Shown here: positions 1 through 20,519 of the stretch, one piece after another | Numbering within the stretch: the stretch's first letter is position 1 | Layout: each line of letters opens with the position of its first letter | IMG/VR virus record: IMGVR_UViG_2925939204_000008 | Origin: a virus | Lineage: Duplodnaviria; Heunggongvirae; Uroviricota; Caudoviricetes | Reading direction: 5' to 3' (one strand) | Length of the DNA stretch: 20,678 nt | The notes under the pieces: generated by a model | Databases searched by the model: none | Seen by the model: only the letters and a program-made list of their open reading frames with translations | What the model was told of the DNA's origin: nothing | Position numbers and translations under genes: made by a program

Positions 1-552
1 TTACCTGGTTGCCGGAAATTTTTTATATAGCGTCGATATCCCAACATCGTAAATTAATGCCACACGCTGTCGTGATTCACCTGCTGCAATCAACCTGCCT
101 GCCTGCGCCCACTGTTCATCAGTTAGCTTTGATCGACGCCCACCTATTCGCCCTTCTTCACGAGCCGCAGCCAATCCCGCCCTGGTACGTTCGACTATCA
201 GCTCCCTTTCCATTTCTGCAAGTGCGCCCATGACATGGAAGAAAAAGCGTCCCATTGGTGAAGACGTATCTATGCTGTCGGTCAGGCTGCGAAAGTTAAT
301 ACCCTTTTCCCGAAGCTCCTCCACCAAAACGACAAGATGCCGCATGCTGCGACCGAGTCGATCCAATTTCCAGACCACCAGCGTATCGCCTTCAGACAGA
401 GTCCTGAGTACTTTCTTCAAGCCCGGCCTGTCAGACGTTCTGCCGCTGATCTTATCCTCGAATATCAGTTCACATCCTGCGCACTCCAGCGCGTTTCGTT
501 GCAATGCAGTGTTCTGGTCATTTGTTGACACGCGTACATAGCCGATGAGCAT
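1..552 (-). CDS. pin: Serine recombinase, DNA invertase of the Pin/Gin/Hin/Cin family
   Basis: 183-aa ORF with stop at 1-3; resolvase-type N-terminus (MLIGYVRVSTNDQ with the nucleophilic Ser, LDRLGRS, GRFFFHVMGALAEMERELI) and C-terminal HTH; close to Pin/Gin by recall. Confidence 0.9.
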   Translation of the reverse strand: MLIGYVRVSTNDQNTALQRNALECAGCELIFEDKISGRTSDRPGLKKVLRTLSEGDTLVVWKLDRLGRSMRHLVVLVEELREKGINFRSLTDSIDTSSPMGRFFFHVMGALAEMERELIVERTRAGLAAAREEGRIGGRRSKLTDEQWAQAGRLIAAGESRQRVALIYDVGISTLYKKFPATR

Positions 553-606
553 GAGAAATAACCCTGTAAAAATCCGGGATCATGCCATCTGAGCCGAATA
601 ACTGCA

Positions 607-632
607 TTTTCTAAAAGGTTGGTTTGGGAGAA
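607..632. other. pix/gix-like 26-bp invertase crossover site (one half well conserved, other half degenerate)
   Basis: Minus-strand reading TTCTCCCAAACC AA CCTTTTAGAAAA resembles the gix/hix pattern TTCnnnnAAACC..GGTTT..GA.AA; sits 55 bp upstream of the pin start, where the pin-proximal site is expected. Confidence 0.4.
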
Positions 633-971
633 GCGGCTAAAAGGAATGTAGGGACAGGGGCGAATCAGATACCTGATATGGGTAGCTTCACGCTTTCTGT
701 TTCAGGTACTGGATATCAAAAATTACCATCAGGTTTTATTCTTCAGTGGGGCTCAATCGGCGCACCAGGCATTGCACAGGATGTAGTAACCCATTTCCCG
801 ATTGCATTTCCAAACAGATGTCTGCGTGTTTTGGTCTCACAAGACTACACACCAGATAGCGGGGCTGTTGGTTATATTGCCTGTGCAGGTTTTAGTCCCG
901 ACCCGGTTAAATTTATATCCAGAGCCAGTACTCCTGGCCTCGGCGCTTCATTTTTAGCGTTAGGCTGTTAA
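624..971 (+). CDS. Tail fibre C-terminal (variable-region) fragment; reading frame opens inside the crossover site and has no canonical ATG
   Basis: 115-aa ORF starting with TTG inside the pix-like site and reading away from pin, as expected for the alternative variable tail-fibre segment of an invertible G/P-type region; Gly/Ser/Thr-rich composition. Confidence 0.4.
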
Positions 972-1155
972 TTTAGCTATATGGAGTGAAAAATGAATTA
1001 CATATATTCCGCGACTACAAACTCTTTCTATCCGCTGGAGATGAAAGAGGATTACCCCAGCTCGCGGACATCCTTCCCGGTGGGTTCATCAAACTCCAGT
1101 ACGGAGAGTGTCTCACCATGAGCGATAATCGGTTTCTTTAACTCAAGCTCTTTCA

Positions 1156-1512
1156 TTACTGGTAATCCCCTTCTTCACCGTGGAACTCAAGATCAACCGT
1201 GCCTTCTTCGGCATTATGGTTCGCTTCTCCGTGCAGCCAGGCGGACGACAATACATAGACCTGACCGTTCGCCAGCTCGGCAGTGATGGTCATCTCATCA
1301 GACGAGGTGATTTTGCTCACCGGAAAATTCTTCGGCACCTTGAAGGTCCCTTTGACATAAGGCGCACGGTGAGTTTCCTTGCGGTCCACTGAACCGTCCA
1401 GGCCGATGATGTCATCATTGACCGTCCTGTTCATGGGCACCTCAATGCCGCCGGTCAGCGATAGCTGCTGACCGTCAATTTTGAAATAACAGGTTCCCCC
1501 GATACGGGCCAT
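1156..1512 (-). CDS. Putative contractile-tail tube protein (Mu gpM-like)
   Basis: 118-aa ORF immediately downstream of the sheath-like gene with start/stop overlap at 1512; size and position fit a tube protein; not searched. Confidence 0.5.
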   Translation of the reverse strand: MARIGGTCYFKIDGQQLSLTGGIEVPMNRTVNDDIIGLDGSVDRKETHRAPYVKGTFKVPKNFPVSKITSSDEMTITAELANGQVYVLSSAWLHGEANHNAEEGTVDLEFHGEEGDYQ

Positions 1513-2651
1513 TATGCAGACTCCTCTGAATACTGAAGACGGAACTGGTTAACCACGGCAAAAACACGCAACTGGTTAACATAGTCAGGCGGGAACAGCG
1601 TGTTCAGGCGGTTCGGATCGCTGGCATCACGCTCAACAACCAGGTACTGCTTAAACAGTTCGTAGTTTTCCACGATCCCCGCACACTCAAGCTGACGGTA
1701 GGTTGCCAGCAGTTCCCCTTTGATTACCGCCGGGGTGACAATCGCCTGACCGGGACCAAAGCGGGTACCGTCGCTGGCAAGCTTGTGACGCCCGTACTTA
1801 CTGGTAATGACGGATTTCAGTTTGCGCAGTACATACGCACTGGTATGCAGCGTCTCGCTGTCGAGGTAGCTGTTATCCGCAACCCCGTAAGCATTTTTCC
1901 TGTACGTGGTGACATCACGCTGAATGCGCACCAGCGTGTTAACGGAGGCCGTGTCGTTGAACGGCAGACCGATATAATCAAACGGCTCATCCGCCATTGC
2001 AGCCACCGCGCCGGTGAGAACCGGAGCGCCCGTTCCGGCGGTCCCCGTCGCCACGGCAATCTGTACGCCCGCTGGCAGCACTTCACCCCCACCGAAGCCG
2101 TAGTAATTGAGGCTGACAGGAATTTCATTCCCGCAAAGCCCCTTATGACGCGCGGTCAGCGTGACAACACCAGCCGAAGATGAAGCTGTAAACGGCAGAG
2201 TCGGAACGGCATTGATGGCATCCTGGATACTGCTGGCAATCGTCGTGACGTTATCGCCGTTGGTCACCGGAGCCTGCACACGGGTACGTCCCACATAGAC
2301 ATTCACCGTGCCGCTTTCGGTTGCTTCCCCGGTCACCGTCAGCGTAACCGTTGCCGCCGCGCCTGTGGCTTCCGGAACGGCAATCACATACAGCTCGCCA
2401 AACGGGTCAGTCTGGCGATAAGCCTCGACCATACGCGCCAGCTGACTTCCCGCACCACAAATCTGGCGTGCATAGTCTGCCGACGGCATCAGCACCAGGC
2501 TGTTGGCAACAATCTCTGCACCGTTATTGGCATGACCAATCAGCAGCGATGCTCCGCTGTCCTGTGCAGTATTCGCCGCCGAGTTATCCATTTCCGCATA
2601 AAACAGCGGAACCAGCGTATTCGACGGAATGGTGTTAAAGCTTATCGTCAT
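1512..2651 (-). CDS. Putative contractile-tail sheath protein (Mu gpL-like)
   Basis: 379-aa ORF, Gly/Thr/Val-rich beta-type composition, tightly coupled to the 118-aa downstream gene; sheath-tube pairing inferred from order and size. Confidence 0.55.
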   Translation of the reverse strand: MTISFNTIPSNTLVPLFYAEMDNSAANTAQDSGASLLIGHANNGAEIVANSLVLMPSADYARQICGAGSQLARMVEAYRQTDPFGELYVIAVPEATGAAATVTLTVTGEATESGTVNVYVGRTRVQAPVTNGDNVTTIASSIQDAINAVPTLPFTASSSAGVVTLTARHKGLCGNEIPVSLNYYGFGGGEVLPAGVQIAVATGTAGTGAPVLTGAVAAMADEPFDYIGLPFNDTASVNTLVRIQRDVTTYRKNAYGVADNSYLDSETLHTSAYVLRKLKSVITSKYGRHKLASDGTRFGPGQAIVTPAVIKGELLATYRQLECAGIVENYELFKQYLVVERDASDPNRLNTLFPPDYVNQLRVFAVVNQFRLQYSEESA

Positions 2652-2805
2652 CGGTGTTCACCTTTTTATTCACGCGCCGGATATCACCCGCGGCTTCACG
2701 GCGCAGCCAGTAGTTGTTCTCGTCAACATTTCGCCCTTCGGCGGGCAAAAGGTCGCCGCGGGCAGGGTCAGGCACTGACCGCCCTTTAACAGGTTTCACA
2801 AACAT
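2635..2805 (-). CDS. Small conserved phage protein (56 aa) between terminase and sheath genes
   Basis: Not in the ORF track; ATG at 2805 lies 8 nt after the terminase stop and the ORF overlaps the sheath start by 17 nt; translation MFVKPVKGRSVPDPARGDLLPAEGRNVDENNYWLRREAAGDIRRVNKKVNTDDDKL. Confidence 0.4.
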   Translation of the reverse strand: MFVKPVKGRSVPDPARGDLLPAEGRNVDENNYWLRREAAGDIRRVNKKVNTDDDKL

Positions 2806-2813
2806 GATGATTC

Positions 2814-3944
2814 TCAGGAAGGAAGGGTTATTTCGGTGTGATGTTCGATATCGCCGTCAGGCCCGTTACCGGGATCGAGATAATCAACATCAATCGCCAG
2901 CGTTCGCAGTTCATCTAGACTGTTCAGGTCATCCTGCTGGCGGGTATCGTCTTCAGTCAGCTCGCTGATGACCGAAAAATCGAACTGATAAATCAGCTCA
3001 TGACGATTCAGATCCAGCAGCGTACCGCCGTCATAGGTAATCGGGTTACCGCACGCTTCCGGGTTAGCTTTTTCCAGCACCTGTGGGTCGGTCCAGTCGT
3101 CACCTTCGTCAACGGTATAGATGATCCCGAACAGTTCATCGTTGGGTACCGACCCGTTGAGCATCTCGATAACTTCCCGCCGCTTGTCGTAGCACGGCCC
3201 CTCAATGTTGTACCCGGCAGTAGTAATGGCCCACATCAGTGGCTGACGTCGCGCCCCCATCCCGGTAAGCATCGTGGTGTAAAGCGCGTCGGTGGCGTGC
3301 TCGTGATATTCATCCACCACCGCACAGTGGGGTGATGATCCATCACCGGGGTTACCGATCAGCGGTTCAAACCGCGCGCCATCCTCCGGACGGTTCATGT
3401 TTGAGGCGTTAACCTCAATCCCGAACGCTTCCGTCAGCATGGGTGTGCGTTTACACATCAGTCGCGCCGGGCGAAAGACTTCCCACGCCTGTTTCTCTGT
3501 CGTGGCACCGGAATACACTTCCGCGCCAAACTCGTTATCACAGGCAAAACAATACAGGGCGACACCGGCAGAGATTGCCGATTTGCCGTTCTTACGGGGA
3601 ATTTCGGTATACACCTCCCGGAAGCGGCGCAGCCGGATACCTTTATTGACCCAGCCAAACGCACAGCAGATCACAAAGAGCTGCCACGGCTCCAGCGTGA
3701 TGGGCATCCTCTTGAATGCCCACTCCCCCTTGGTGTGCGGCAACAGTTGAATAAATTTGGCGGCCCGTTCAGCCAGGTCCTTGTCGAAGCGGTAACGAAA
3801 CGACTTACTTTTTTCCGCCATCAGGTCATCAAGATGGCGCTGGCAGGCCTGAATCACAAACTGGCAGGCCACAATCTTTCCGCGCACGACATCACGGGCA
3901 TACTGATTGGCAGCATTTACGTTGGGGTAAGATTTCCGGCTCAT
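2814..3944 (-). CDS. Phage terminase large subunit, ATPase domain only (truncated; nuclease domain missing)
   Basis: Walker A-like PRKNGKS, Walker B-like [14 protein letters not shown] motif; 376 aa is too short for a full TerL and the C-terminal ~70 aa is an acidic low-complexity tail. Confidence 0.7.
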
Positions 3945-4406
3945 GACTCGATGATTTTCAGAAACGGGTTAGTGGCTTTCTTCTGCCCCGCCAGGCCAAT
4001 CAGACGCTGGCGGCTGCTGGGGTCGAGTCCGAGCATTGCCCCCGTGCTGCTCATCTCGGACTCCTGTTCTTTTTTGGCGGTCAGCTCCGGATTTTTGACC
4101 CTGCCGCCCATTGCACCGGTGATGGTGTTGCCCTGTATCAGGAAGAGACACAAAGACGCCATTTGCAGACTGCGCCACAGCGTCAGCAATGAAGTGAGTT
4201 CCACCTGCACGTTGCAAAATCATTGCCCATCCCAGCGGGAAAATCTGATCGCCATCGGCACGAAGGCGGTTAAATAATGCGTTCTCTGTTACATCCAGCC
4301 AGTCAGCAGCTTCAGCGTACCCCCCCGGCAACGCTGCGATAGTTTTTCTGACAGCTTTCACGTACCACTCAGGCTGTTTTTCTACTTTCCAGTGATGCTT
4401 ACCCAC
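3941..4406 (-). pseudogene. Frameshifted small DNA-binding gene upstream of terminase large subunit (terminase small subunit-like or CII-like)
   Basis: N-terminal part in ORF 3969..4406 (HTH-like GGYAEAADWLDVTENALFNRL) turns to low-complexity read-through; C-terminal part in the +1 frame (3941..4210) ends in an ATGA overlap with the terminase start; frames swap around 4110-4170. Confidence 0.45.
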
Positions 4407-4659
4407 GGTTCACCTCCTGTTCCTGTGGTTTAAACCCATTCTGGTTTTGGCTAGATTGAAAACGTGCCGGATAAAGAATCTGCATTTCGCTGACTTCACC
4501 CTTAAAAAAATTGGCTAAACGTTCTGCAAGCTCGATAGATGGAATCTGCTCCAGCCTCTCAATACGACTCAACGTCGCTGGATTGACTTGAACACCCGCA
4601 GCAACATGCTGCAAAGTGAAACCATGCGCCTTACGCACATTTCGTAATGGTGATTGCAT
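4399..4659 (-). CDS. Cro-like HTH (XRE family) DNA-binding protein
   Basis: 86-aa ORF with HTH (FTLQHVAAGVQVNPATLSRIE), divergent from the CI-like repressor across a 97-bp operator-containing intergenic region. Confidence 0.7.
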   Translation of the reverse strand: MQSPLRNVRKAHGFTLQHVAAGVQVNPATLSRIERLEQIPSIELAERLANFFKGEVSEMQILYPARFQSSQNQNGFKPQEQEVNRG

Positions 4660-4673
4660 ACGCCCTCCAAATA

Positions 4674-4736
4674 TTGCGCGTTATGCATGTTATTTCACGC
4701 AATTATTTTGCGCAAGTTGATTTGCTTATCACGCAA
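4674..4736. promoter_or_regulatory. Operator region of the cI-like/cro-like divergent pair (TTGCG..CGCAA palindromes)
   Basis: TTGCGCG-N15-CACGCAA (4674-4702), perfect palindrome TTGCGCAA (4708-4715), TTTGC-N7-CGCAA (4722-4736), all between the two divergent start codons. Confidence 0.45.
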
Positions 4737-4756
4737 TAAAGAAATGTAATAAACGC

Positions 4757-5449
4757 ATGAACATAGGAAACCGAGTCAGACAACTTCGCCAAGCGAAGAA
4801 CATGAAAATCGCCGATCTCGCTGAAGCGATAGGAGTAGATGCGGCGAACATCTCGCGCTTAGAAACGGGTAAGCAAAAACAATTTACCGAACAAACACTG
4901 AGTAATATTGCCAAGAGCTTAGGTGTTGATATTGCTGATCTCTTTACCTCTGCCCACAAAAGTAATACTGTATATAAAAACAGTAATAATGAGGATGTTG
5001 CGCAGGTGAAGGATGTGTTCCGTATTGAAATGCTGGATATCAGTGCCAGTGCGGGAAATGGCCTTATCCAGGGCGGTGATGTCATTGATGTGATTCATGC
5101 CATCGAATACAGAACTGATAATGCTGTATCAATGTTCGGCGGACGACCAGCCAATCACATCAAAGTTATCAACGTTCGTGGGGACAGTATGTGTCCAACC
5201 ATTGAGCCAGGAGATCTCATCTTCGTTGATGTCAGCATCAATCAGTTTGATGGTGATGGTATATATGTCTTTGGTTTTGATGACAAAATATACGTTAAAA
5301 GACTTCAAATGATTCCTGACAAACTGCTGGTGATTTCTGATAACCAGATTTACCGTGAATGGGGAATTACTAGCGAAAACGAACACCGATTCATGGTCTT
5401 TGGAAAGGTCTTAATCAGTCAGTCGCAAACCCTTAAGAGACATAATTAA
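4757..5449 (+). CDS. CI-like phage repressor, N-terminal HTH plus C-terminal LexA-like S24 peptidase domain
   Basis: 230 aa; N-terminal HTH (MKIADLAEAIGVDAANISRLETG); C-terminal S24 signature GDSM (Ser) and downstream KRL (Lys). Confidence 0.85.
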   Translation: MNIGNRVRQLRQAKNMKIADLAEAIGVDAANISRLETGKQKQFTEQTLSNIAKSLGVDIADLFTSAHKSNTVYKNSNNEDVAQVKDVFRIEMLDISASAGNGLIQGGDVIDVIHAIEYRTDNAVSMFGGRPANHIKVINVRGDSMCPTIEPGDLIFVDVSINQFDGDGIYVFGFDDKIYVKRLQMIPDKLLVISDNQIYREWGITSENEHRFMVFGKVLISQSQTLKRHN

Positions 5450-5468
5450 CCTCAATATCCCATCCATC

Positions 5469-5491
5469 GGCCACCGAAAGGTGGCTTTTTA
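5469..5491 (+). terminator. Rho-independent terminator after the repressor gene
   Basis: GC stem GCCACC / GGTGGC with GAAA loop followed by TTTTTA. Confidence 0.7.
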
Positions 5492-5502
5492 TTACCTATA
5501 AA

Positions 5503-5540
5503 TTTGCATATATAGCAAATATAACTTGCATATCTCGCAA
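5503..5540. promoter_or_regulatory. Two operator-like palindromes (TTTGC-N7-GCAAA and TTGC-N7-GCAA) upstream of the xis-int operon
   Basis: TTTGCATATATAGCAAA (5503-5519) and TTGCATATCTCGCAA (5526-5540) share the TTGC/GCAA half-sites seen in the cI-cro intergenic region. Confidence 0.4.
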
Positions 5541-5845
5541 TTTAATTTTATCTTTTGTTCCAGACCAACTACAGGATTACAACAAAATCTGGTTGCAACA
5601 CGGTGCATGTGTCGTAAGCAGTCAGTAAATGTCAAAAACGAACAGGCAGGACGCCCACGAAGTAGCCGCCTGGGGCATATGAAGTCCAGGATGATTCGTT
5701 AGCAACAAAAAAGCGCCCTACAGGACGCTTAGCTCTTTAACAATCTGGTCCCCATCAACAAGTAACTGATAACTTGAGGAGACCTTGAAAACGTCAATAT
5801 CACTCACTGGGCAGTAATGCCAAAAGCACCGGAGGCTGGAGCATA

Positions 5846-6151
5846 ATGACCACTTTTACCGACAAAGAACTGATTAAAGAAATTAAAGAGCGTATCAGCA
5901 GCCTTGACGTGCGAGACGATATTGAGCGCCGTGCTTATGAAATCGCACTCCTATCTCTGGAAGTAGAACCAGATGAACGCGAAGCTTATGAATTATTCAT
6001 GGAAAAGCGTTTCGGTGACTTAGTAGATCGTCGGAGAGCAAAAAACGGCGATAACGAATACATGGCATGGGATATGACTCTCGGTTGGATCGTCTGGCAG
6101 CAACGAGCAGGTATCCATTTTTCAACAATGTCACAACAAGAGGTGAAATAA
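5846..6151 (+). CDS. Hypothetical protein (101 aa), translationally coupled to xis
   Basis: ORF with acidic helical composition; stop TAA overlaps the xis ATG (TAATG at 6149-6153). Confidence 0.5.
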   Translation: MTTFTDKELIKEIKERISSLDVRDDIERRAYEIALLSLEVEPDEREAYELFMEKRFGDLVDRRRAKNGDNEYMAWDMTLGWIVWQQRAGIHFSTMSQQEVK

Positions 6152-6501
6152 TGGAGCCATACAGCCTCACACTCGATGAGGCCTGTCATTTTCTCAAGAT
6201 ATCCAGACCGACTGCCATTAACTGGATACGCACAGGGCGTCTTCAGGCAACACGCAAAGATCCCACTAAGAATAAATCTCCTTACCTCACAACACGACAA
6301 GCCTGCATTGCGGCTCTTCAGTCTCCGCTGCATACTGTCCAGGTGAGCGCGGGTGATGGCATAACAGAGGAAAGAAAATGTCACTCTTCCGCAGAGGTGA
6401 AATATGGTACGCCAGTTTCACATTGCCGAACGGTAAAAGATTTAAACAGTCTCTTGGAACAAAGGACAAAAGGCAGGCGACAGAACTCCATGACAAGCTA
6501 A
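6151..6501 (+). CDS. xis: Excisionase / AlpA-like DNA-binding protein
   Basis: [33 protein letters not shown] is a typical excisionase HTH; start chosen at the ATG at 6151; reading frame stays open to 6501, overlapping the int start by 124 nt, so the true end is uncertain. Confidence 0.65.
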
Positions 6502-7541
6502 AGGCTGAAGCATGGCGGGTCAGCAAACTTGGTGAAATACCTGATATAACGTTCGAGGAAGCGTGTGTCAGGTGGCTTGAAGAGAAAGCACATAAAAAAT
6601 CGCTGGACGATGACAAAAGCCGGATCGGATTCTGGCTTCAACATTTCGCAGGAATGCAACTAAGAGACATTACTGAATCAAAAATTTATTCAGCAATGCA
6701 GAAAATGACGAACCGGCGTCATGAGGAAAACTGGAAACTCAGGGCAGAAGCATGCAGAAAAAAAGGGAAACCTGTTCCAGAATACACGCCAAAACCAGCG
6801 TCCGTTGCAACGAAGGCTACGCATCTTTCATTTATAAAGGCCCTACTAAGAGCCGCAGAGCGTGAATGGAAAATGCTGGATAAGGCACCAATTATTAAAG
6901 TGCCTCAACCAAAGAATAAACGGATCCGCTGGCTGGAGCCCCATGAAGCACAAAGGCTGATTGATGAATGTCCGGAGCCATTAAAGTCTGTTGTTGAATT
7001 TGCACTGGCAACAGGCTTAAGACGCTCGAACATCATCAACCTTGAATGGCAACAAATAGATATGCAGCGCCGGGTGGCATGGATAAACCCGGAAGAGAGT
7101 AAATCAAACCGCGCAATTGGCGTTGCGCTGAATGATACTGCATGTCGCGTATTGAAAAAACAAATCGGGAATCATCACCGTTGGGTATTTGTGTACAAGG
7201 AAAGCTGTACCAAACCAGACGGAACGAAAGCGCCAACAGTAAGGAAGATGCGGTATGACGCAAACACAGCCTGGAAAGCGGCGCTGAGACGGGCTGGTAT
7301 TGATGATTTCAGATTTCACGACTTGAGACACACCTGGGCAAGTTGGCTGGTTCAAGCCGGAGTCCCGTTGTCAGTGTTACAGGAAATGGGAGGCTGGGAG
7401 TCTATCGAAATGGTTCGTCGATATGCTCACCTTGCACCTAATCACCTTACCGAACACGCACGGCAAATAGACTCGATCCTGAACCCATCGGTCCCAAATT
7501 TGTCCCAGTCAAAAAATAAGGAAGGTACTAATGATGTGTAA
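6378..7541 (+). CDS. int: Tyrosine recombinase, phage integrase (e14 IntE-like)
   Basis: 387 aa; N-terminus [14 protein letters not shown]; catalytic-type motifs HDLRHTWAS and VRRYAHL; good RBS GAGGAAAG. Confidence 0.9.
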
Positions 7542-7713
7542 CTTATTGATTTTAATGGTGCCGATAATAGGAGTGTAACACGCGATAAATCTTGTGTTCG
7601 GGTCTTCTTCTACGACCTTCGCAACTACCTGATTTAACGATTTTTACGCACACTGATAATCTGGCATTCATCATGCACATGATAAACGCCCCTAAACTTT
7701 AACGGGGTGGAAA

Positions 7714-8937
7714 ATGAAATACAAGCCGGATCAATACATCATATCTGATAGTTACGGAGTTTATTACGTCAGGATTTCAATTCCTGTATGGCTTCGTAAT
7801 GCATTTGGTGGAAGAAAAACTCTCGTCCGTAGTCTGAACACTTCCGATCTTCGTGTGGCTCGTAGGAAGCGTGATGTTATAGCCGACGAATTTCACCACA
7901 TCAGGCAAATTGCAGAGCCGCCAAAACCGGACAGCTTGCAGGACACGATCAGCTTTTTAAAGAGCGTGGCTAAGTACGCGAAAGCTGCCCCGAAAGCATC
8001 AGCTCCGATTATCTACCAATGCCCCTCTCTGAATAAGATGTTAGAGATTTACCTCACGCATAACGCTGATCGCCTGAAAATGGGAACATTAAGCAAGACC
8101 AGAAAAGCCGTTGAACTGTTCCTGAATTACCTGCGAAAGAAGGATGTTGAACTAAACGATATCAACCGTACCACCGTTACAGGCTGGCTTGATCATCTCC
8201 GAGAGACAAAGGCAGTCCAGACAGTGGCTAACTACCTATCAGCAATGGCAAACATTCTCGATCTTGCCTCTTCCCGATACCAGGACGCCCCACCGCTGGA
8301 AACTAACGTGTTCAGGGGGCATAAACTCAACACAGCGCAGAGCCGCCAGAGTTACGAGGCATTCACGGACGAAGAAATTACGAAGCTCATTAGCACGTTT
8401 AACAAGTTAGGAGAGGACGAATTAAGGGATGTGAGCGCCATCGCCGCTTATAGCGGAATGCGCATCAATGAAATAGCCAGTTTGAAATCTGACAATATCC
8501 GTGAAGTTGAGGGGGTGTTATGTTTCGAGGTGACGGAGGGTAAGACACGCAATGCGGCGCGGTTGGTTCCACTTCATAGTGCGATTAGAAAAATGGTTCT
8601 GGAACGCTGCCAGAAGCCGCACAACGGCTTTTTATTCTACCGTGCAAGTGTGACCAAGAGACAGGACGGCAAGCGCTCCTCATGGCACGTAAACCGCTTT
8701 GGACGGCTTAAACGCGATATTCTCCCAGGGCAGGAAAACAAGGTGTTTCACTCGTACCGCCATGCAGTGATCAGTAAGCTAAACGCCGCCGGAGTGGATG
8801 AATCTCGTATTGCCTTGCTCGCGGGTCACTCATTTGGAGAAACTGAGTCTTTCAAGACGTATTCGAAGAGTGTTCCTGAGCGTATTATGAAGGAGTTAGC
8901 GGGGTATATTGAATTAATAAATTACAACGTCCAGTAA
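7714..8937 (+). CDS. int: Tyrosine recombinase, integrase of genomic-island type
   Basis: 407 aa; C-terminal catalytic region with HSYRHAVIS and a downstream Tyr; long N-terminal arm/core-binding region. Confidence 0.85.
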   Translation: MKYKPDQYIISDSYGVYYVRISIPVWLRNAFGGRKTLVRSLNTSDLRVARRKRDVIADEFHHIRQIAEPPKPDSLQDTISFLKSVAKYAKAAPKASAPIIYQCPSLNKMLEIYLTHNADRLKMGTLSKTRKAVELFLNYLRKKDVELNDINRTTVTGWLDHLRETKAVQTVANYLSAMANILDLASSRYQDAPPLETNVFRGHKLNTAQSRQSYEAFTDEEITKLISTFNKLGEDELRDVSAIAAYSGMRINEIASLKSDNIREVEGVLCFEVTEGKTRNAARLVPLHSAIRKMVLERCQKPHNGFLFYRASVTKRQDGKRSSWHVNRFGRLKRDILPGQENKVFHSYRHAVISKLNAAGVDESRIALLAGHSFGETESFKTYSKSVPERIMKELAGYIELINYNVQ

Positions 8938-8941
8938 TTAA

Positions 8942-8961
8942 GGGGGGATTATACATCCCCC
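8942..8961. terminator. Hairpin between convergent int2 and the 92-aa gene (possible bidirectional terminator)
   Basis: GGGGGGAT-TATAC-ATCCCCC stem-loop; no strong U-tract on either side. Confidence 0.35.
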
Positions 8962-8967
8962 GATAAC

Positions 8968-9246
8968 TCATTTATTCCATTCGTTTTGAATTTGATTCTC
9001 AACTGCTGGCAAAAGGTTATACCAGGAAGCAGAGTTATTCTTAGCATCAACAACAATCAACTTATCATCGCTATCCATCGCTGCCCGAACTTTTCTGGCA
9101 GCCTCTTCAACCGAATAATTCGAATTTACGTACCAGTTCGACTCGGTAACTTTTGCCCAGTTGCCCAAGGCCTTGATAGCATCATGCACAGCAGCATAAT
9201 CTTTGGTTTTGATCAAGTCATAGGTTACAAACAAGTTGTTAGCCAT
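8968..9246 (-). CDS. Hypothetical small protein (92 aa)
   Basis: ORF at the distal end of the minus-strand operon; N-terminal beta-strand-like LFVTYDL. Confidence 0.5.
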   Translation of the reverse strand: MANNLFVTYDLIKTKDYAAVHDAIKALGNWAKVTESNWYVNSNYSVEEAARKVRAAMDSDDKLIVVDAKNNSASWYNLLPAVENQIQNEWNK

Positions 9247-9304
9247 TTAATTCTCTCCAGACATTCAAATGAATAAGCACCGCTATGGGCACTTTGAGAT
9301 ATTT

Positions 9305-9433
9305 TTATTTCTTAGCTTTCTTGGTAGGGATTTTGATAGTTTCAGTTATCGTAGTATCAGGATGTCGTTTAGCTTCAATGGGCTTAACAAACTGACCAGT
9401 TATCGCAGAACGAACTACTGTTTTCTTAGCCAT
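9305..9433 (-). CDS. Small basic protein (42 aa), not in the ORF track
   Basis: ATG at 9433 preceded by GAGGTG with 5-nt spacing; translation MAKKTVVRSAITGQFVKPIEAKRHPDTTITETIKIPTKKAKK. Confidence 0.3.
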   Translation of the reverse strand: MAKKTVVRSAITGQFVKPIEAKRHPDTTITETIKIPTKKAKK

Positions 9434-9468
9434 AAAAACACCTCATCTTGGAGATAAAGAGTGAACTG

Positions 9469-9488
9469 CTTACCCTTTTAAGGGTAAG
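9469..9488. terminator. Perfect hairpin downstream of the 616-aa gene
   Basis: CTTACCC-TTTTAA-GGGTAAG inverted repeat; no U-tract, so terminator function is uncertain. Confidence 0.3.
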
Positions 9489-9584
9489 GGACAAACGAAG
9501 CGGCGTCAAAGAAAAACACCACATATACACATCCTTTACAAACCGAGCGCAATATGTGGTATTCCCATGTGATTTACATCACAA

Positions 9585-11435
9585 TCATCCCCCTGTGGAT
9601 GACTGACCGCTCAAGGCTGATAGCGTAAGGCTACGAGTGAATGAATCCGCACTCGCTTTTGCAGACCAGTCGATATAGTCAGACAATCGAGAAACATCAC
9701 TTTGCAGAGTCAATCCCACTTGTGGATTCACTTGTAGGTTGAATATCGGGTTCAACGTGTACGCTGGCGCGTTGCTGCTGTTGAGCGACATTGCCGAAGC
9801 ACGGAGATTTTCCCCTGAAAGGCTGTATTGATTAGTCGCTGTCCCTGCTTGCTGATTACCAACGCCCAACCAATCCATGATAGCCGGAGCCACTGAACGG
9901 GTATCAAACCCCGTTTTATCCTGAATCCAATCGGCCGTAGCATTCGCAGAGCCACCCACAGCACCATCATAAAGATTTTGAACAGCAGGTTTCTTAGTAT
10001 CGCTAAACCATTCAGGGTGTTGTTGGCGGAGAGTACTGTTAAGATCAGACACTACGCTGGAGATTTCTCCAACAAAGCCCGTCACCTGTTTAGCCAGGTC
10101 GCCTAATCCCTCTCCGAGCATACCAGCAGATTCTGTTATCACTTTGGTGTTCTTCACCAGGTCGTCACCACCATCAGCAAAGCCTTTCATAAAGCCTGTA
10201 AACATGCTGTTATCAACGCCATTCATGAGATTACCCATCGCTACACTCAGATCACCATATGCAAGAGTTTGCTTGATCTGCTCCTCGTTAAGAGTTTGAC
10301 CACTATCGACAAGCTGTTTCAGCGTCTTGTTATATTCTGCACCGTTGTTCATGAACATATCGGTGTAGTGCATCAGGTCATCACCTAAACTCTCTATAAG
10401 CGTACCAATCTGAGCCTGTGACATACCACGGCGTTGCCCTTCATTGGTAACTGCTTGAAGTAGATCAGCAGGACGATCCTGGAAGGATTTAATCTGTTCT
10501 TTGCCCCATCCAAACTTATTCATAATAGAAGTGATACCACCATCGCCGCCTTTCCATTCGCCATTTTTAAACTGGCTATCGTTCAGGGTCATAGCGATAC
10601 GTTCACGTACATCTTTGAAATTGTCCGTCACTTTATCGACATTGGCGCTATCAACTCCGTGTTGCTGCCCCCATGCCACCATCGTTTTAACTACGTTAGG
10701 ATTAGTCTTAACAAGTTCCGATTTTCTAACCAAGTCAAGATTTTCATTCCCTTTGTCAACAATTCGCTGCCCCACTCCGAGGGAGCCAGCCGTTAACGCA
10801 AGGCTTCCTAATACCCCACCACCGACGATAGGAGCATTCCCGCCCTTCTGAGCCTTTAGCTTAGTGGCTGCTGCGGCATACTGGGTACGCTGTGCCTGTG
10901 TCACTTTCGCTTGTTGTGCGGCTTCTCTGCGTAACAGGGTTACACGCTCGCGTATAAGCGCATTCATACGTTGAGAGCTAATATTCCCCTTCGCAAACTC
11001 TTCGCTTTGCTGATGAATATAACGTAACGCTTCATACTGAGATTTAGGATCAAGCCCGTATTTACCTTTAATTCCTGACACTTGTAGCCCTGCATGGCGA
11101 AGTTTAAGCTCGGCTGTCTCTTGGCGCTTCTGTAGCTGCTGCTTCGCTTTCAGATTGGCCTTTTCATCCCTGGCTTTCTGCTTCTCCGCCGCACGTTGGG
11201 CTTTCATTTCCTTCGTATCACGAGGCTTATCATTAAAACGTGCATCATCGGCTTGTTGACGGGCTTTCTGTCTGCGCTGCTTCAGATCCTGGAAGCGAAT
11301 CTTGGGATCGGCTATTTTCTGGAAGTGCTTTTGAAGGTTATCCGCTGCGGCCTTAGCCTCTGCAATACTCCCTTTGTCAACGGTGAAAGTTACGGTGTTG
11401 ACGATCTTACTTGTATTAATCTCAAGCATCGCCAC
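9585..11435 (-). CDS. Large structural-type protein, tape-measure-like (coiled-coil N-terminus, Gly-rich hydrophobic segments)
   Basis: 616 aa; K/R/Q/E-rich coiled-coil N-terminus then APIVGGGVLGSLALTAGSLGVG-type segments; GTG at 11435 or ATG at 11429 as start; function inferred from composition only. Confidence 0.4.
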   Translation of the reverse strand: MAMLEINTSKIVNTVTFTVDKGSIAEAKAAADNLQKHFQKIADPKIRFQDLKQRRQKARQQADDARFNDKPRDTKEMKAQRAAEKQKARDEKANLKAKQQLQKRQETAELKLRHAGLQVSGIKGKYGLDPKSQYEALRYIHQQSEEFAKGNISSQRMNALIRERVTLLRREAAQQAKVTQAQRTQYAAAATKLKAQKGGNAPIVGGGVLGSLALTAGSLGVGQRIVDKGNENLDLVRKSELVKTNPNVVKTMVAWGQQHGVDSANVDKVTDNFKDVRERIAMTLNDSQFKNGEWKGGDGGITSIMNKFGWGKEQIKSFQDRPADLLQAVTNEGQRRGMSQAQIGTLIESLGDDLMHYTDMFMNNGAEYNKTLKQLVDSGQTLNEEQIKQTLAYGDLSVAMGNLMNGVDNSMFTGFMKGFADGGDDLVKNTKVITESAGMLGEGLGDLAKQVTGFVGEISSVVSDLNSTLRQQHPEWFSDTKKPAVQNLYDGAVGGSANATADWIQDKTGFDTRSVAPAIMDWLGVGNQQAGTATNQYSLSGENLRASAMSLNSSNAPAYTLNPIFNLQVNPQVGLTLQSDVSRLSDYIDWSAKASADSFTRSLTLSALSGQSSTGG

Positions 11436-11619
11436 CGCCTTTTTTACTCACCAGATAATTAAGTGCATCTGATACACTACGCCCACGATGTAATAACTGA
11501 CGTAGATGACCGTGATCTATTTCAAGCACACGACACACTCCCGCCAGATTTAATAACTCTTCTGCTGTTTCAGCATTTACGGCGAGGTGAAGCCCCGCGC
11601 TTTTTACAATCACTTGCAT
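11422..11619 (-). CDS. Hypothetical small protein (65 aa)
   Basis: ATG with upstream GAGGAAAG; overlaps the start of the 616-aa gene by 14 nt. Confidence 0.45.
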   Translation of the reverse strand: MQVIVKSAGLHLAVNAETAEELLNLAGVCRVLEIDHGHLRQLLHRGRSVSDALNYLVSKKGGGDA

Positions 11620-11738
11620 TTATCTTTCCTCATTCTGGAAATAAAAAAGGGCGGGAACACTGGGGAGATGTTCCCAACGTTCACACGCCCTATTCAATAG
11701 CCTGATTATTTCCAGCGGGTCAGGCTCCCGCTTGCTCA

Positions 11739-12770
11739 TTAAGCAGTGATGGTGATCTTCACCTGCATACCTAACGCATGGTTCACTGGTAATGCGCTGT
11801 TTTCGTGCATAACGTGGTAAGCATCGCCGCGCTCGCTCAGGTAGCCCCAAGAGTAGTATTCAGCAGGTGCAGCATCGATCAGCGCAAAGTTACCAGAGGC
11901 AGCGCCGTAGATGTTCTGATAAGCATTTGTGCCTTTACTGAACACCGGAACCGCCACCATGTCAGCATCATCTGGCATCTGTGCAAGGATCAGCGGATCT
12001 GTCACTTTAACAATGTCGATAGGCGCACCAGGTAGGCTAAACGTACTAACACCAGGGAGAAGCTCGTGACGCTGGTAGAATAGGTTACGGTCGTCATATG
12101 GCGCTACATACTGGAACGCCTTAGACATACTGTCAGAGAAGCGAATCTGGCTAAATGCAGCAGGTTTAGCGAATACGATCACTCGTTCAATCTGTCCAGC
12201 CAATCCACCTGCGGCAGCCTGAACTTTGTCTAAGATCGCATCAAAATCCTGTGCCGCTGTCGCTGTGCTCACGCTGGCTGTCATTGGCACCACACCGAAC
12301 AGTTCAGCATAAGAGATCAGTAGGTCATCAGTTGCAGGCGTATAAACTTCACCTTTGAACAGAGCACGGGCCAGGTAAGACTCACGGGTACGCAGATAAG
12401 CAATCTTATGTTTGCCAGTGTATTCGGTGTACAGGTCGGTAACGGTTTGCTCGTAGTCCGTTCCCTGCACTCTGCGGCCTTGTACGTCTACAGGTTTAAA
12501 CTCATCTTCCCTTGCAAACCAAGGAATCTCGATAAGGTATTCTTTGCCATTCTGACGCGCGGTAGTGTCGTGGTTTGATGAATAACGGCTCTGCGGGGTG
12601 TTAAACAGGCTGTAGTTATCATCCAGAAGCTGTGTCACCACCACTTTCGGATTCTGAACACCTACCCCGTCGAATAGGTCGAGGGCATTCATAAGATAGT
12701 TACGTTCCGGCAGAGCCTGGAAGATTGGCGCTAAATCGACCATCTCACGCCCAATTGCGATTTTACTCAT
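11739..12770 (-). CDS. Putative major capsid protein (lambda gpE-like size and position)
   Basis: 343 aa (lambda gpE is 341 aa), directly downstream of a ~119-aa gene as in the lambda D-E pair; assignment from size, order and composition, not from confirmed similarity. Confidence 0.45.
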   Translation of the reverse strand: MSKIAIGREMVDLAPIFQALPERNYLMNALDLFDGVGVQNPKVVVTQLLDDNYSLFNTPQSRYSSNHDTTARQNGKEYLIEIPWFAREDEFKPVDVQGRRVQGTDYEQTVTDLYTEYTGKHKIAYLRTRESYLARALFKGEVYTPATDDLLISYAELFGVVPMTASVSTATAAQDFDAILDKVQAAAGGLAGQIERVIVFAKPAAFSQIRFSDSMSKAFQYVAPYDDRNLFYQRHELLPGVSTFSLPGAPIDIVKVTDPLILAQMPDDADMVAVPVFSKGTNAYQNIYGAASGNFALIDAAPAEYYSWGYLSERGDAYHVMHENSALPVNHALGMQVKITITA

Positions 12771-12786
12771 TATTTATCTTCCTTGA

Positions 12787-13146
12787 TTAAGAGGTGAAGA
12801 ATGGACGGCATACGAACCCTTTGGATTCGAGCGTGGTGATAGCTGCGGCGTGATTAGCTGCGTGCAGGTTGTCGGCTTTCAGTGCTACGAAGCTACCAAC
12901 ATTAGGCGCACGTAGGACATTCACGGTTTTACCGTCGCCAGCACTCACGAAATCACTTACCACCACAAAGGCATCATCGCCGGAGGTGTATAGAGCGCCA
13001 TCAGCGCCGATAACATCGCCGCATTCAATATCTGCTGGCAGGTCGAAAACACGGCCTTCTACGACTGCAAAAGAATCAGTGGCGTAGCTCAATACGTCAG
13101 TGAAACTCTTACGAATTGGGAAAAGTTCGGTTAGGTCTACAATCAT
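12787..13146 (-). CDS. Putative head decoration or small capsid-associated protein (gpD-like position)
   Basis: 119 aa, Gly/Ala/Val-rich, immediately upstream of the capsid-like gene. Confidence 0.3.
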   Translation of the reverse strand: MIVDLTELFPIRKSFTDVLSYATDSFAVVEGRVFDLPADIECGDVIGADGALYTSGDDAFVVVSDFVSAGDGKTVNVLRAPNVGSFVALKADNLHAANHAAAITTLESKGFVCRPFFTS

Positions 13147-13358
13147 TGTTGTTTGATTTCCTTGGATTTGATTGCGATCCGTTCCTGCATACTAAGTTGA
13201 GGTGTGTCCTCAGAAGGGAAATACTGGTCTACAGCTTTTTCTATTTCTTCAACGGTACATCCTGCCATTTCAGCCACTTTAGCTATTAACTCAGGATTAA
13301 CTTGAATCACTTCGGATTTGTATTTTAGGATTCGGTCGCGATTGTTTATTAAGAACAT
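13143..13358 (-). CDS. Hypothetical small protein (71 aa), first gene of the structural operon
   Basis: ATG at 13358 preceded by GAAGGAA; stop overlaps the next start (ATGA at 13143-13146). Confidence 0.45.
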   Translation of the reverse strand: MFLINNRDRILKYKSEVIQVNPELIAKVAEMAGCTVEEIEKAVDQYFPSEDTPQLSMQERIAIKSKEIKQQ

Positions 13359-13433
13359 TGTGTTGTTCCTTCGCGTTATAACTGCGTTTATCCTTCCATT
13401 GATAACGGAAGTGTTACATGCAGATTGTTAAAA

Positions 13434-13451
13434 AGGGGCGATTAAGCCCCT
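13434..13451 (-). terminator. Intrinsic terminator on the minus strand between the regulatory and structural operons
   Basis: Minus-strand RNA AGGGGC-UUAAUC-GCCCCU followed by UUUU. Confidence 0.45.
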
Positions 13452-14024
13452 GGAGAATATGCCCTTGTTAGAAAGCATTCTGTTAAAATCATTTTCGTTT
13501 CGGAGGATTATGATGTTAAAGAATGGCTTCTTGAAAAAATGAAGGGCGCAACTGTTACGAATAACAGAAGTAGGATCGCCCGTCATTGCTCCCACTTCAA
13601 AACAGAAGCCCTTCTGTCATGGCGAGAAGTGGGAATGGAATCTCAATATCACCACTGGAATAGTAATAAGAGATTGCCAGCCTGAACGTAACTACCGCTG
13701 ACGGCGTTTATTCAGTCTGACTACATTCATCCTAACGGAATGAATGAGCAAAGAGCGAATGCCCTTTCTGAAAAAGTCGGAGATGCGCGGTGATTGCGAT
13801 GCAATACCAACACAACGAGATATTACATCCCGCGCATTCCTTCGGAACAAACAAGACAAAGAACCAACACTTTCAGAAATAGCATTCAGAGGGAGAGAAT
13901 GCCGCTATGGGAACGGCATTCTCAAGGAGTGCGTATTGACATACGAGGGTGAAGTGATTCGAATACTTACCCTATAACTCATTATGACACATATAGCACA
14001 TAATGTCAAGACATTTAGTAACTT

Positions 14025-14363
14025 TTATGTTATGGCGCATTCTTCCGCGATCTGGATGGAAAGCTCTCCGAGTTCAACGGTGATGTATTGCAGAGAGCAA
14101 GCAAGCTCCTCAAGGTCATTAGCTACACGCCACGCTTCTTCTGGTGTGATCGAACTGCCGTCACGCTGCACCAAACGAGCTACAGACGTTTGCAGATGTT
14201 CAAGGGCAGTGATTGCCTGTTCAGTGTATTGCACCGCTTCCAGAAGCGCGGAGGGCGTTCTCTCACGCCACGCTGCATTAACAAGCTGTAAGGTTGGTAA
14301 ATGCCAGTTGTCGTGGAAAGAGTTAATTAGGGTGTTCACTGTGTCCATAGTTTTATTATTCAT
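14025..14363 (-). CDS. Hypothetical protein (112 aa from the ATG at 14363)
   Basis: ORF track gives 14025..14459; the ATG at 14363 overlaps the upstream stop (14356-14358) and is the likelier start. Confidence 0.45.
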   Translation of the reverse strand: MNNKTMDTVNTLINSFHDNWHLPTLQLVNAAWRERTPSALLEAVQYTEQAITALEHLQTSVARLVQRDGSSITPEEAWRVANDLEELACSLQYITVELGELSIQIAEECAIT

Positions 14364-14739
14364 TGTTTTCCTTGTCGTCAAAGAGAATATCAAACTCTTG
14401 TGTGTGCTGGGATAGCCCCCAGGTTTGACAATACCCAATATAATCGGCGTAATGTTCAAATCCTGCTATTTGCCATTTCTTGAGATGGCTACTATCTATA
14501 ATATATTCGCGTCTGCGTCGTGGTTTGTAATAAACGTTATCCGTTGACGATAGAACATCCTGCAATAGTTCAAACTCTAATCCATTTGGTACTACTGCGG
14601 GATATTCTTTAATAGTTGTCACCATCTCACCAGGAATAGACTCTCGTGCGAGGTCTTGTAGAGAAGAGGTGTATTTACGTTTGCTGATGCGTGTGGCTTT
14701 TTCGATTCTAACAAGGTTACTTCGTTCTTTTCGTCCCAT
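14356..14739 (-). CDS. Hypothetical protein (127 aa)
   Basis: ORF in operon context; basic N-terminus; no recognisable motif. Confidence 0.45.
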   Translation of the reverse strand: MGRKERSNLVRIEKATRISKRKYTSSLQDLARESIPGEMVTTIKEYPAVVPNGLEFELLQDVLSSTDNVYYKPRRRREYIIDSSHLKKWQIAGFEHYADYIGYCQTWGLSQHTQEFDILFDDKENNE

Positions 14740-14843
14740 TCATTCCTCGTAGAGGGGAAACTCCTTGTCTGGTTATAACGTAAACGCCATAGAATATGGT
14801 GAACCACCATAAAGCAGTAATCATAAAAGTTTCCCGATTGTTG

Positions 14844-15305
14844 TTATTTAGTCGTAAGTGTAATGTCGCATCCTTTACCGCGACCAGGTTTGATTAACGT
14901 AGTAGTTAGATAATCATTGCGGCGAAGCTTGCGAATCGCACTGGATACAGTTGCCACACTTATCCCCAACACTATCGCTATTGACTCCTGTTTCACATTT
15001 GTTAATGATGGCAGTGATTCGAGGTGCATTAATACCAGACGTTCCGAAGGAGACAGATTCTTATCGTGAAGATGTGGGGATGTCATTTTACATTCTATCT
15101 CTTTCGGTGGCTTCATCGCTGCATTGAATAGCGTAACAAGAGCATTAGCGTAACTTGATTCACCTCGCTCAGCGTAAACATCTACAAGTTCTTGCGCTTG
15201 TTCGAATGCAACACCTCTTTCAACTTCTGGATTTAATAAACTGGCAAGATGGATGATGTTAAGATCACGTTCGTTGTATTGTTTGGGTATAACCGTTTTC
15301 AGCAT
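14844..15305 (-). CDS. Winged-helix (MarR-like) DNA-binding protein
   Basis: C-terminal wHTH-like LSPSERLVLMHLESLPSLTNVKQESIAIVLGISVATVSSAIRKL. Confidence 0.5.
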   Translation of the reverse strand: MLKTVIPKQYNERDLNIIHLASLLNPEVERGVAFEQAQELVDVYAERGESSYANALVTLFNAAMKPPKEIECKMTSPHLHDKNLSPSERLVLMHLESLPSLTNVKQESIAIVLGISVATVSSAIRKLRRNDYLTTTLIKPGRGKGCDITLTTK

Positions 15306-16039
15306 AAATGTTCTATTTCCTCGTAGATTGGTTTAAGTTTTGGATTCTTCTCTGTGTCCAGGTATCCGTTAATAAGTAGCCATCTGATTTTCGGATGTTG
15401 TGAAACTGGTAGATTCTTTTCAGGATTCTCCCATTCATCCCGATAACCCTCAAGAAAGTTTAAATTAACTGGCTCTATCTTAATATCTTTAGCTGGAATG
15501 GAGGCGGGTTTCTTCGTAGGCATTTTCTTTGGCTTCTCCGGCTTCGGATCTGCTTTGGCCTCTTCTGGCACTGACTGCTGTTTTTCTTCCTCTGGCGCTA
15601 CGTCTTCTTTAGCTTTGCCAAACACGGGATGTTTCAGACAATCTACCCATTCCGGCGCGGAATCACGTTCCATCGCATTACGATCACGTTCAAAGGTGAA
15701 GTTTTGCGGCGTGAGTGGCGTTATAGTCCATTGGTTAGAGCGCTTTGGCTTATTACTGGCGATCAGTCCGATTTTCTTCAACTTTGCAACAATACGTGTT
15801 GCCGTAGCCGAGCTGACACCAATACTTGCACCAAGTTGATCAATGTCATCGTAATAAGTACCGCCCAACTCTATCGCAAAGCGATAATAACGATGGCGCA
15901 TTCTGACGTAAAACTGCTTATCAGCAGGAGACAGGGACTCTGTTACGCCTGTTTTAAGATTGGTGATCCTGGTGCATTCGTTAAATGCGTCTTCGGTGTT
16001 GGTGAAACTAAAAGCCTTACTGTTTATAATGTCAGTCAT
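15299..16039 (-). CDS. DNA-binding protein with lambda O-like architecture (N-terminal wHTH, K/P/E-rich linker, C-terminal domain); possible replication initiator
   Basis: SPADKQFYVRMRHRYYRFAIELGG...GVSSATATRIVAKLKKIGLI resembles the replication protein O N-domain by recall; long low-complexity linker. Confidence 0.4.
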   Translation of the reverse strand: MTDIINSKAFSFTNTEDAFNECTRITNLKTGVTESLSPADKQFYVRMRHRYYRFAIELGGTYYDDIDQLGASIGVSSATATRIVAKLKKIGLIASNKPKRSNQWTITPLTPQNFTFERDRNAMERDSAPEWVDCLKHPVFGKAKEDVAPEEEKQQSVPEEAKADPKPEKPKKMPTKKPASIPAKDIKIEPVNLNFLEGYRDEWENPEKNLPVSQHPKIRWLLINGYLDTEKNPKLKPIYEEIEHLC

Positions 16040-16053
16040 GTTAGGGTGTATCC

Positions 16054-16230
16054 TTATTTGGTAGAACGTTCTCCGTTCTTAATTGATGTGGAAAGTGTGG
16101 TTGCAGCGTCAATTAACATCTCCTGCACTGTTACGCCTCTCGCTCGCGCCTCTTTGAACAAAGTACTAAACACTTCATCCGGCAGTTTTACGAATGTTCC
16201 GGCTGGTTTCTTCTTCTGGATTTCGCTCAT
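16054..16230 (-). CDS. Ribbon-helix-helix (Arc/CopG-like) DNA-binding protein, 58 aa, not in the ORF track
   Basis: ATG at 16230 preceded by AAGGAG; MSEIQKKKPAGTFVKLPDEVFSTLFKEARARGVTVQEMLIDAATTL has a beta-strand then two helices as in RHH repressors. Confidence 0.5.
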   Translation of the reverse strand: MSEIQKKKPAGTFVKLPDEVFSTLFKEARARGVTVQEMLIDAATTLSTSIKNGERSTK

Positions 16231-16248
16231 TTGGTTTCTCCTTCTGGT

Positions 16249-16497: not shown

Positions 16498-16592
16498 GTT
16501 GCCTGATAGTGCGGTGTAAGTTGGATTGTTTGCGTTAGGCTGGATGCCTGAGATGAGGACGGGATGAATGCTTTCATTACCCTACATCATTT

Positions 16593-18622: not shown

Positions 18623-18632
18623 GGAGATACGC

Positions 18633-20508: not shown

Positions 20509-20519
20509 TTAGCCCCATC

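Follow-up and report, generated by a model that had tools for sequence, protein, structure and literature searches.

An intact pin invertase gene and a single pix-type site as the probable remains of an invertible tail-fibre switch in an e14-like prophage at thrW

The locus examined here raises the question of what a DNA invertase gene can still do when it stands beside one crossover site and a fragment of a tail-fibre gene. A complete switch of this kind has two inverted sites flanking the invertible segment, a constant 5' part of the fibre gene, and two opposed cassettes with their chaperones. The whole stretch of DNA that was analysed, referred to below as the window, is 20,678 nt long and is E. 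coli chromosome, 99.995% identical to that of AR_0118 across its full length. At its left end lies a gene for a Pin-type invertase, and the sequence features around it make it very probable that the locus is the pin-proximal end of a decayed invertible tail-fibre switch belonging to an e14-like prophage at thrW. The features on which the argument turns are the following.

1-552, minus strand: pin, an open reading frame with an ATG start encoding 183 amino acids; the window opens with its stop codon
553-606, minus strand: 5' leader and presumptive promoter of pin, separating the crossover site from the start codon of pin
607-632, no strand assigned: pix-type crossover site of 26 bp, organized as 12-2-12, with the central TT at 619-620 on the plus strand
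621-971, plus strand: tail-fibre C-terminal cassette (Sv'-type, gp53-like; Pfam Gp53-like_C, E=4e-15)
993-1055, plus strand: stub of the tail-fibre assembly gene tfa', its first 21 codons, annotated by PGAP as a partial tail fiber assembly protein

The invertase itself appears undamaged. Its length of 183 residues falls inside the range of about 180-195 expected of the small serine invertases Gin, Hin, Pin and Cin, and it has both domains of that group, a catalytic domain (Pfam Resolvase, E=8e-51) and a C-terminal DNA-binding domain (Pfam HTH_7 at residues 138-181, E=9e-13). Residues 1-183 align to residues 1-183 of Mu Gin, the sequence of structures 3UJ3 and 4M6F, with E=9e-92. Sequence identity is 87% with PinE of e14, 86% with the invertase of a P2-like prophage, 79% with Mu Gin and 40% with PinR of Rac, and in an alignment of these five proteins Y5, R7, S9, D64 and R65 are among the invariant columns. 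The minor-groove arm reads GRIGGRRS, compared to GRIGGRPP in Gin. Because PinE and the P2-like invertase have RRP at that place, and because a Pin protein identical to that of the window (RefSeq WP_023568707.1) is found under the same accession in the intact prophage of E. coli APEC20/16, the RRS arm is probably a natural variant. Judged from its sequence, Pin is thus an intact serine DNA invertase of the Gin/Pin family in which no lesion is apparent; it is probably still competent and may be expressed.

The leader of pin contains blocks shared with e14 pinE, Mu gin and the P2-like invertase gene (e.g., ATGGCAT.AT and TTTT), and may act as a promoter; a simple scan of positions 1-1300 found no sigma-70 consensus promoter for either pin or the cassette. 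The 5' coding region of pin is conserved with gin and pinE, and a Fis-dependent recombinational enhancer is presumed to lie within it. In a phage database search with positions 1-1060 of the window, coverage reached only 57-66% at 74-81% identity. The matches were to the invertases of P2-like phages of Klebsiella, Escherichia and Yersinia, and nothing closer came up among sequenced phages.

The crossover site, TTTTCTAAAAGG-TT-GGTTTGGGAGAA, lies 54 bases upstream of the pin start codon. It reads TTCTCCCAAACC-AA-CCTTTTAGAAAA on the opposite strand, an imperfect 12-2-12 palindrome of the gix/hix/cix/pix type, and so has the arrangement by which such sites are recognized, with two imperfect inverted 12-bp half-sites (TTNTCNNAAACC-like) flanking a 2-bp core. 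There are no mismatches to a degenerate consensus of Gin, Hin, Pin and Cin sites, with 0 such matches expected in shuffled sequences. The site is identical to the pin-proximal pix of e14 (TTCTCCCAAACCAACGTTTATGAAAA, from K-12 MG1655) at 23 of 26 positions, and it holds 15 of the 16 nucleotides of the e14 inverted repeat TTGGTTTGGGAGAAGG as quoted in PMC12529663.

A partner for this site was not found. Exact searches, searches allowing up to three mismatches and searches with the degenerate family consensus gave no second site in the 20.7-kb window, and a half-site matrix scan gave none in 43 kb of the AR_0118 chromosome around the locus, a region that took in 20 kb upstream of pin, beyond the left edge of the window. 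One site, therefore, is present in the window and these 43 kb where a complete switch has two. The preliminary description of this DNA had reported an invertase gene, one pix-like site and no second site in the window. All three observations hold, and each element stands at the coordinates given for it. An inverted partner site only a few kb away would, by the same description, have spoken against decay; none lies in the 43 kb around the locus.

A diverged or distant second site could nevertheless be imagined, with Pin pairing 607-632 with a quasi-site, for instance 17173-17198, to invert a large chromosomal segment. Quasi-sites are used at low frequency by Cin and Gin, and the near-palindrome at 17173-17198, TCTTCTAAAAGC-TC-TCTTTTAGAGAT, scores 21 of 24 with a permissive half-site matrix. 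Such a score, however, occurs in 19% of random sequences of the same length and composition. Furthermore, the TC/GA core is incompatible with the TT/AA core of 607-632, and a mismatched central dinucleotide blocks productive strand exchange in Gin-family invertases. All seven or eight genomes compared are colinear across both 607-632 and 17173-17198. We regard inversion against such a quasi-site as extremely improbable and as already effectively refuted.

What a complete version of the locus looks like is apparent from E. coli APEC20/16, which carries a 35.5-kb near-intact e14-like prophage at the same position, i.e., at the tRNA-Thr gene thrW next to proA. This prophage serves as a proxy for the ancestor and is not the ancestor itself, its colinear blocks being 96.5-99.9% identical to the window; its cassette, like its Pin protein, is identical to that of the window. 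The order begins with pin, the site, the silent cassette and tfa'. On the opposite strand there follow tfa, the tail-fibre gene, ymfQ, baseplate J, gp46, V and the tape measure gene, then the genes for tail chaperone, tube and sheath, the head genes and terminase, and finally the lysis genes, Q, replication genes, cro/cI and int. With lambdoid early and head genes and a Mu-like contractile tail, the prophage is an e14-like lambdoid/Mu-tail hybrid.

Its distal site, TTCTCCCAAACCAAGGTTTTCGAGAG, is inverted and falls within the tail-fibre gene; 1870 bp separate the two arms of the repeat. Together with the pin-proximal site it forms the strongest inverted repeat of the region, and it is identical to the distal pix of e14 at all 26 positions. 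The core dinucleotides, TT and AA, are compatible in inverted orientation. When the segment is inverted in silico at the central dinucleotides, the fibre of 266 amino acids is converted to one of 213 amino acids, in which the same 98 N-terminal residues (ending in ALENLG), encoded by the constant part at 2519-2807 of the APEC20/16 prophage, run in frame into the cassette found in the window.

Because the in-silico inversion joins the constant part in frame to the cassette, the open reading frame of the window is best understood as a silent 3' cassette, open to exchange, from a fibre gene whose constant 5' part of 98 codons is missing here, and not as a self-starting gene. The plus-strand frame is open from 615, after a TAA at 612-614, through the right half of the site and up to the stop codon at 969-971. 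Start calls differ, with a TTG at 624 in the list of open reading frames and an ATG at 678 in the PGAP annotation (a CDS of 97 amino acids, 678-971). The earlier statement that the tail-fibre reading frame begins in the site is therefore right in that the cassette runs out of the crossover site, away from pin, in a frame that spans the right half; as a description of function it needs amendment, as the frame is the 3' part of a gene whose 98-codon 5' part has been lost. In APEC20/16 the same stretch carries the same gp53-like annotation, and the CDS at 678-971, called a gp53-like domain-containing protein, is better taken as a silent 3' cassette.

Many E. coli genomes carry the 415-bp cassette, with the start of tfa', at 100% identity. 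In some of these the gp53-like fragment stands beside an invertase gene; elsewhere, in P2-like prophages, the cassette is in the expressed position and supplies the C-terminus of a full-length gpH-like tail protein. The tfa' gene that follows it is complete in APEC20/16, encoding 146 amino acids (Pfam Caudo_TAP, E=1.5e-37).

The 97-residue CDS called by PGAP could also mean that the gp53-like fragment is expressed alone from the ATG at 678 and benefits the host, e.g., by receptor masking of the StfE2 kind. StfE2, derived from e14 fibre fragments, blocks adsorption of phage T2, but it is the chimeric product of a fusion generated by inversion, and its effect required that fusion (PMC12529663), which cannot be formed in the window. 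The scan of 1-1300 also found no promoter-like site on the plus strand, and the stretch is a silent cassette in intact relatives, where it is annotated in the same way. Expression of the fragment on its own is accordingly judged very improbable, and we retain the silent-cassette reading.

How the rest of the switch was lost became clear from a blastn comparison of the window with the 35.5-kb APEC20/16 prophage, in which six colinear blocks were found.

Block 1: window 1-1055, APEC20/16 prophage 1-1055
Block 2: window 1049-1930, APEC20/16 prophage 10628-11508
Block 3: window 1929-3065, APEC20/16 prophage 11864-13000
Block 4: window 3061-4136, APEC20/16 prophage 18903-19978
Block 5: window 4136-5781, APEC20/16 prophage 30134-31779
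Block 6: window 5778-7574, APEC20/16 prophage 33765-35561

Two further features follow from this map.

1049-1056, no strand assigned: deletion junction, GAGGATTAC joined to CCCAGC, at which about 9.57 kb is missing
1056-7574, minus strand: rest of the e14-like remnant, defined by the blastn blocks and by PGAP pseudogene annotations

The microhomology at the first junction is short and imperfect (GGATTAC versus GGATAC). The deletion of about 9.57 kb took the rest of tfa', the second tfa, the expressed cassette Sv, the distal pix and the constant part of the fibre gene, together with ymfQ, the baseplate genes, the tape measure gene and the 5' part of the gene for the tail assembly chaperone. Four further internal deletions are located at about 1929, 3063, 4136 and 5780, and the prophage now measures 7.6 kb, having lost about 80% of its DNA. 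An assembly artefact at 1055/1056 is unlikely, as the junction is common to seven independent complete assemblies: positions 1-3000 of the window, which span it, have matches of about 100% identity in seven complete E. coli genomes.

Beyond the first junction the remnant retains a tail chaperone fragment, the tail tube gene, a deleted sheath gene, terminase fragments, a ymfL fragment, cro/cI-like regulators and the integrase gene, and it ends in a 19-nt att core derived from tRNA-Thr at 7556-7574. The RefSeq annotation of AR_0118 gives the corresponding series as a recombinase family protein, a gp53-like domain protein, a partial tail fibre assembly protein, a partial tail assembly protein, tail tube, a shortened sheath, terminase fragments, a ymfL fragment, two regulators and an integrase. 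The sheath gene has an internal deletion of 355 bp at 1929-1930 and is still called as an intact CDS of 379 amino acids, annotated as 'phage tail sheath C-terminal domain-containing protein', so that a pseudogene is hidden there.

A related deletion was seen in EC361. It shares the left endpoint, position 1055 in tfa', and joins it to position 31965 of the APEC20/16 prophage instead of to about 10634. The EC361 junction lies at 12010-12020 of the EC361 sequence, the APEC20/16 partners being 10628-10634 for the lineage of the window and 31960-31965 for EC361, and neither deletion is derivable from the other. All three junction partners carry a patch resembling AGGAT(N)TAC, the sequence at 1055 being AGGATTAC. 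Position 1055 may be a hot spot for deletion, or the shared microhomology may be coincidental.

These data suggest the following history. In the intact element, Pin would bind a pair of inverted pix sites of 26 bp, separated by about 1.9 kb, one in the tail-fibre gene and the other beside pin, cut at the central 2 bp and invert the segment between the sites. As a result, two C-terminal cassettes for receptor binding, each accompanied by an assembly chaperone of its own, would alternate on the constant N-terminal part of 98 amino acids. An illegitimate deletion of about 9.57 kb at short microhomology, from codon 21 of tfa' into the tail assembly chaperone gene, took away the distal pix and most tail genes along with the constant part and the cassette in the expressed position; the other four deletions, in an order that we infer, brought the prophage down to 7.6 kb. 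The survivors are an intact pin, one pix and the formerly silent cassette.

Since the window keeps a single site and has lost the constant 5' stretch of the fibre gene, neither inversion on the spot nor a switch of fibres is predicted to be possible there, in agreement with the loss of P-segment inversion in e14 when either of the repeat-bearing genes is deleted (PMC12529663). Presumably no rearrangement takes place at the single site. By its recombinase and its site, the locus belongs to the Pin/pix branch of the Gin family, but it lacks what makes a complete switch: the constant 5' part of the fibre gene is deleted, and of two opposed cassettes with chaperones one cassette and 21 chaperone codons are left. 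The suggestion in the preliminary description that the switch is decayed and locally non-functional is borne out by the comparison with APEC20/16, which places the distal site within the deleted DNA.

Sequences of relatives suggest that the complete system is a working switch. A P2-like prophage in ATCC 8739 has an invertible segment that matches the 1.9-kb segment of APEC20/16 at 95% identity over 1.43 kb, but in the opposite orientation relative to the invertase gene. In the related prophage of LP50-1, positions 1-633 of the window, covering pin and the site, are matched at 99.5% DNA identity and similarity stops at 633; the homologous segment continues past the site in inverted form, opposite to APEC20/16. 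Inversion at the site would be expected to leave such patterns, which are seen here as differences between strains and not within a culture. In e14, inversion is visible in sequencing reads (PMC4272514).

The distal site of LP50-1 (7940-7970 of the LP50-1 sequence) has an outer half TGTTCCCAAACC instead of TTCTCCCAAACC, and the adjoining cassette is not joined in frame to the constant part, which carries the annotation partial stfP. This suggests that LP50-1 carries another, different and partly decayed version of the switch.

An intact invertase at a locus that cannot itself invert may have been kept for use elsewhere. Pin would then be useful in trans, acting on other prophages or on infecting Mu, P1 or P2-like phages, and the locus would be domesticated, perhaps for a PinQ-like defence. 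We consider this unlikely. Gin, Cin, Pin and Hin are interchangeable, and invertases of the Gin family substitute for one another in trans. The pin reading frame is intact with all catalytic motifs. Pin probably remains a competent enzyme, one able to act only in trans, its substrates being pix/gix-like sites in other phages, resident or incoming. The host chromosomes hold one or two further pin-like loci that are similar at the DNA level, AR_0118 has three further matches to the site plus cassette start, and PinQ of Qin inverts the P segment of e14 (PMC12529663).

The remnant is 96.5-100% identical to the intact APEC20/16 prophage, which points to recent deletions, and after recent decay an intact reading frame of 552 nt needs no selection to explain it and gives no evidence of selection. 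Other switches, if any, would bring their own invertases, and target sites at the other pin-like loci are putative. Chromosomes bearing the remnant gave two to three blastn matches to pin plus site and one to four to the site plus cassette start, so other switches may be present in some of them; in MS6192 and MS6193 the site plus cassette start was matched nowhere outside the locus itself. The 91-nt query used for the site plus cassette start is insensitive to bare sites and missed the genuine distal site of APEC20/16. In AR_0118, the Rac pinR (40% identity at the protein level) has no DNA match to pin and no pix-like site within 50 kb of its region, the Qin remnant is without a pin gene, and no pix-like site was found in the Rac and Qin regions inspected. 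AR_0118 was not among the matches listed for a query with the P2-like invertase. On balance, action of Pin in trans, for which the preliminary description had allowed, is a reasonable possibility of rather low likelihood, and the locus is still read primarily as a decayed switch.

Among the known systems closest to the locus is e14, with PinE at 87% identity, the proximal pix at 23/26 and the same gene order. The P-segment genes of e14 in E. coli K-12 are pinE, stfE, tfaE, tfaP and stfP. The order ymfQ, fibre, tfa / tfa, fibre fragment, pin is shared by e14 and the intact relative of the window element, and the segments are of similar size, 1.8 kb in e14 and about 1.9 kb in the relative. Both e14 and the window element are decayed lambdoid/Mu-tail hybrids with ymfL, ymfR and ymfQ. 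They differ in that e14, inserted at icd, keeps both sites and still inverts (PMC4272514, PMC12529663), whereas the window element, at thrW, has lost the distal site together with the constant part and one of the cassettes. The cassette adjoining pin in the window also differs from the stfE fragment of e14.

The G segment of Mu (S-U / U'-S') and the C segment of P1 follow the same logic, a constant 5' part with alternative 3' parts and chaperones. Mu Gin belongs to the same recombinase family and acts on sites of the same 12-2-12 architecture, and in Mu and P1, as in the window, one site adjoins the invertase gene, which is read in the direction away from that site. Both phages are complete, with two sites each and segments of 3-4.2 kb, in contrast to the single site of the window. 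The P2-like prophages share a closely related invertase (86%) and the identical 415-bp cassette, but they have a P2-type baseplate, sheath and tube, both sites, and the cassette in the expressed position. The present state of the locus resembles that of pinR of Rac and pinQ of Qin, orphan invertase genes next to tail-fibre and tfa remnants in defective prophages with no working local segment. PinR and PinQ are 40% identical to Pin of the window, and pinR has no pix-like site nearby, whereas the locus in the window keeps one bona fide site. PinQ works in trans (PMC12529663).

The DNA on either side of the remnant has features of its own. Between the remnant and tRNA-Thr lies a second integrative element in tandem, about 13.7 kb long, from 7575 to 20678 in the window and to about 21250 in AR_0118. 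It has its own integrase (7714-8937), a gene at 9585-11435 matching a tape-measure PHROG, one at 11739-12770 weakly matching a major-head PHROG, and a gene for a replication-initiator-like protein (15299-16039). The element resembles a small satellite or a defective phage, and only a few E. coli genomes were found to carry it.

Within this element, a perfect inverted repeat of 14 nt, TTGGCATGGATGAAT-type, with arms TTGCATGGATGAAT at 16948-16961 and ATTCATCCATGCAA at 17325-17338, flanks 363 bp. It sits in an unannotated stretch of 1.5 kb, about 0.7 kb upstream of a gene for a small tyrosine recombinase (18062-18619, 186 aa). An invertible promoter of the fim type was considered here and rejected, since all eight genomes with the full stretch are colinear across a 1-kb query, with no sign of inversion. 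In MS6192 and MS6193 the stretch with the repeat is 32 bp longer.

On the other side, beyond the 3' end of pin, lie a tRNA-Pro gene and genes for an SOS-response-associated peptidase, a DUF2188 protein and a hypothetical protein, followed by a DUF4113/umuC-like fragment. This block occupies 17504-19820 in AR_0118, 5243-7485 in L002 and 1160-4820 in LP50-1. In LP50-1 it stands beside yejM and tRNA-Pro (proL), and in AR_0118 and APEC20/16 it is in the thrW region. The presence of the block at both proL and thrW implies that the same prophage arm occurs at two chromosomal sites, with the tRNA-Pro copy travelling along.

Taken as a whole, the locus represents ordinary, already understood prophage decay, and nothing in it departs from known biology. 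Its value lies in a fully mapped path of decay to an orphan invertase; the reconstruction extends to an intact parent-like prophage, five deletion junctions and the in-frame fusion. By analogy with PinQ, an orphan Pin might be kept by the host, setting the orientation of tail-fibre segments and thereby altering phage susceptibility, with the remaining pix as a by-product; we hold this to be doubtful for the present locus. Orphan invertases are nevertheless of some current interest, as PinQ flips the P segment of e14 in trans and blocks phage T2 (PMC12529663).
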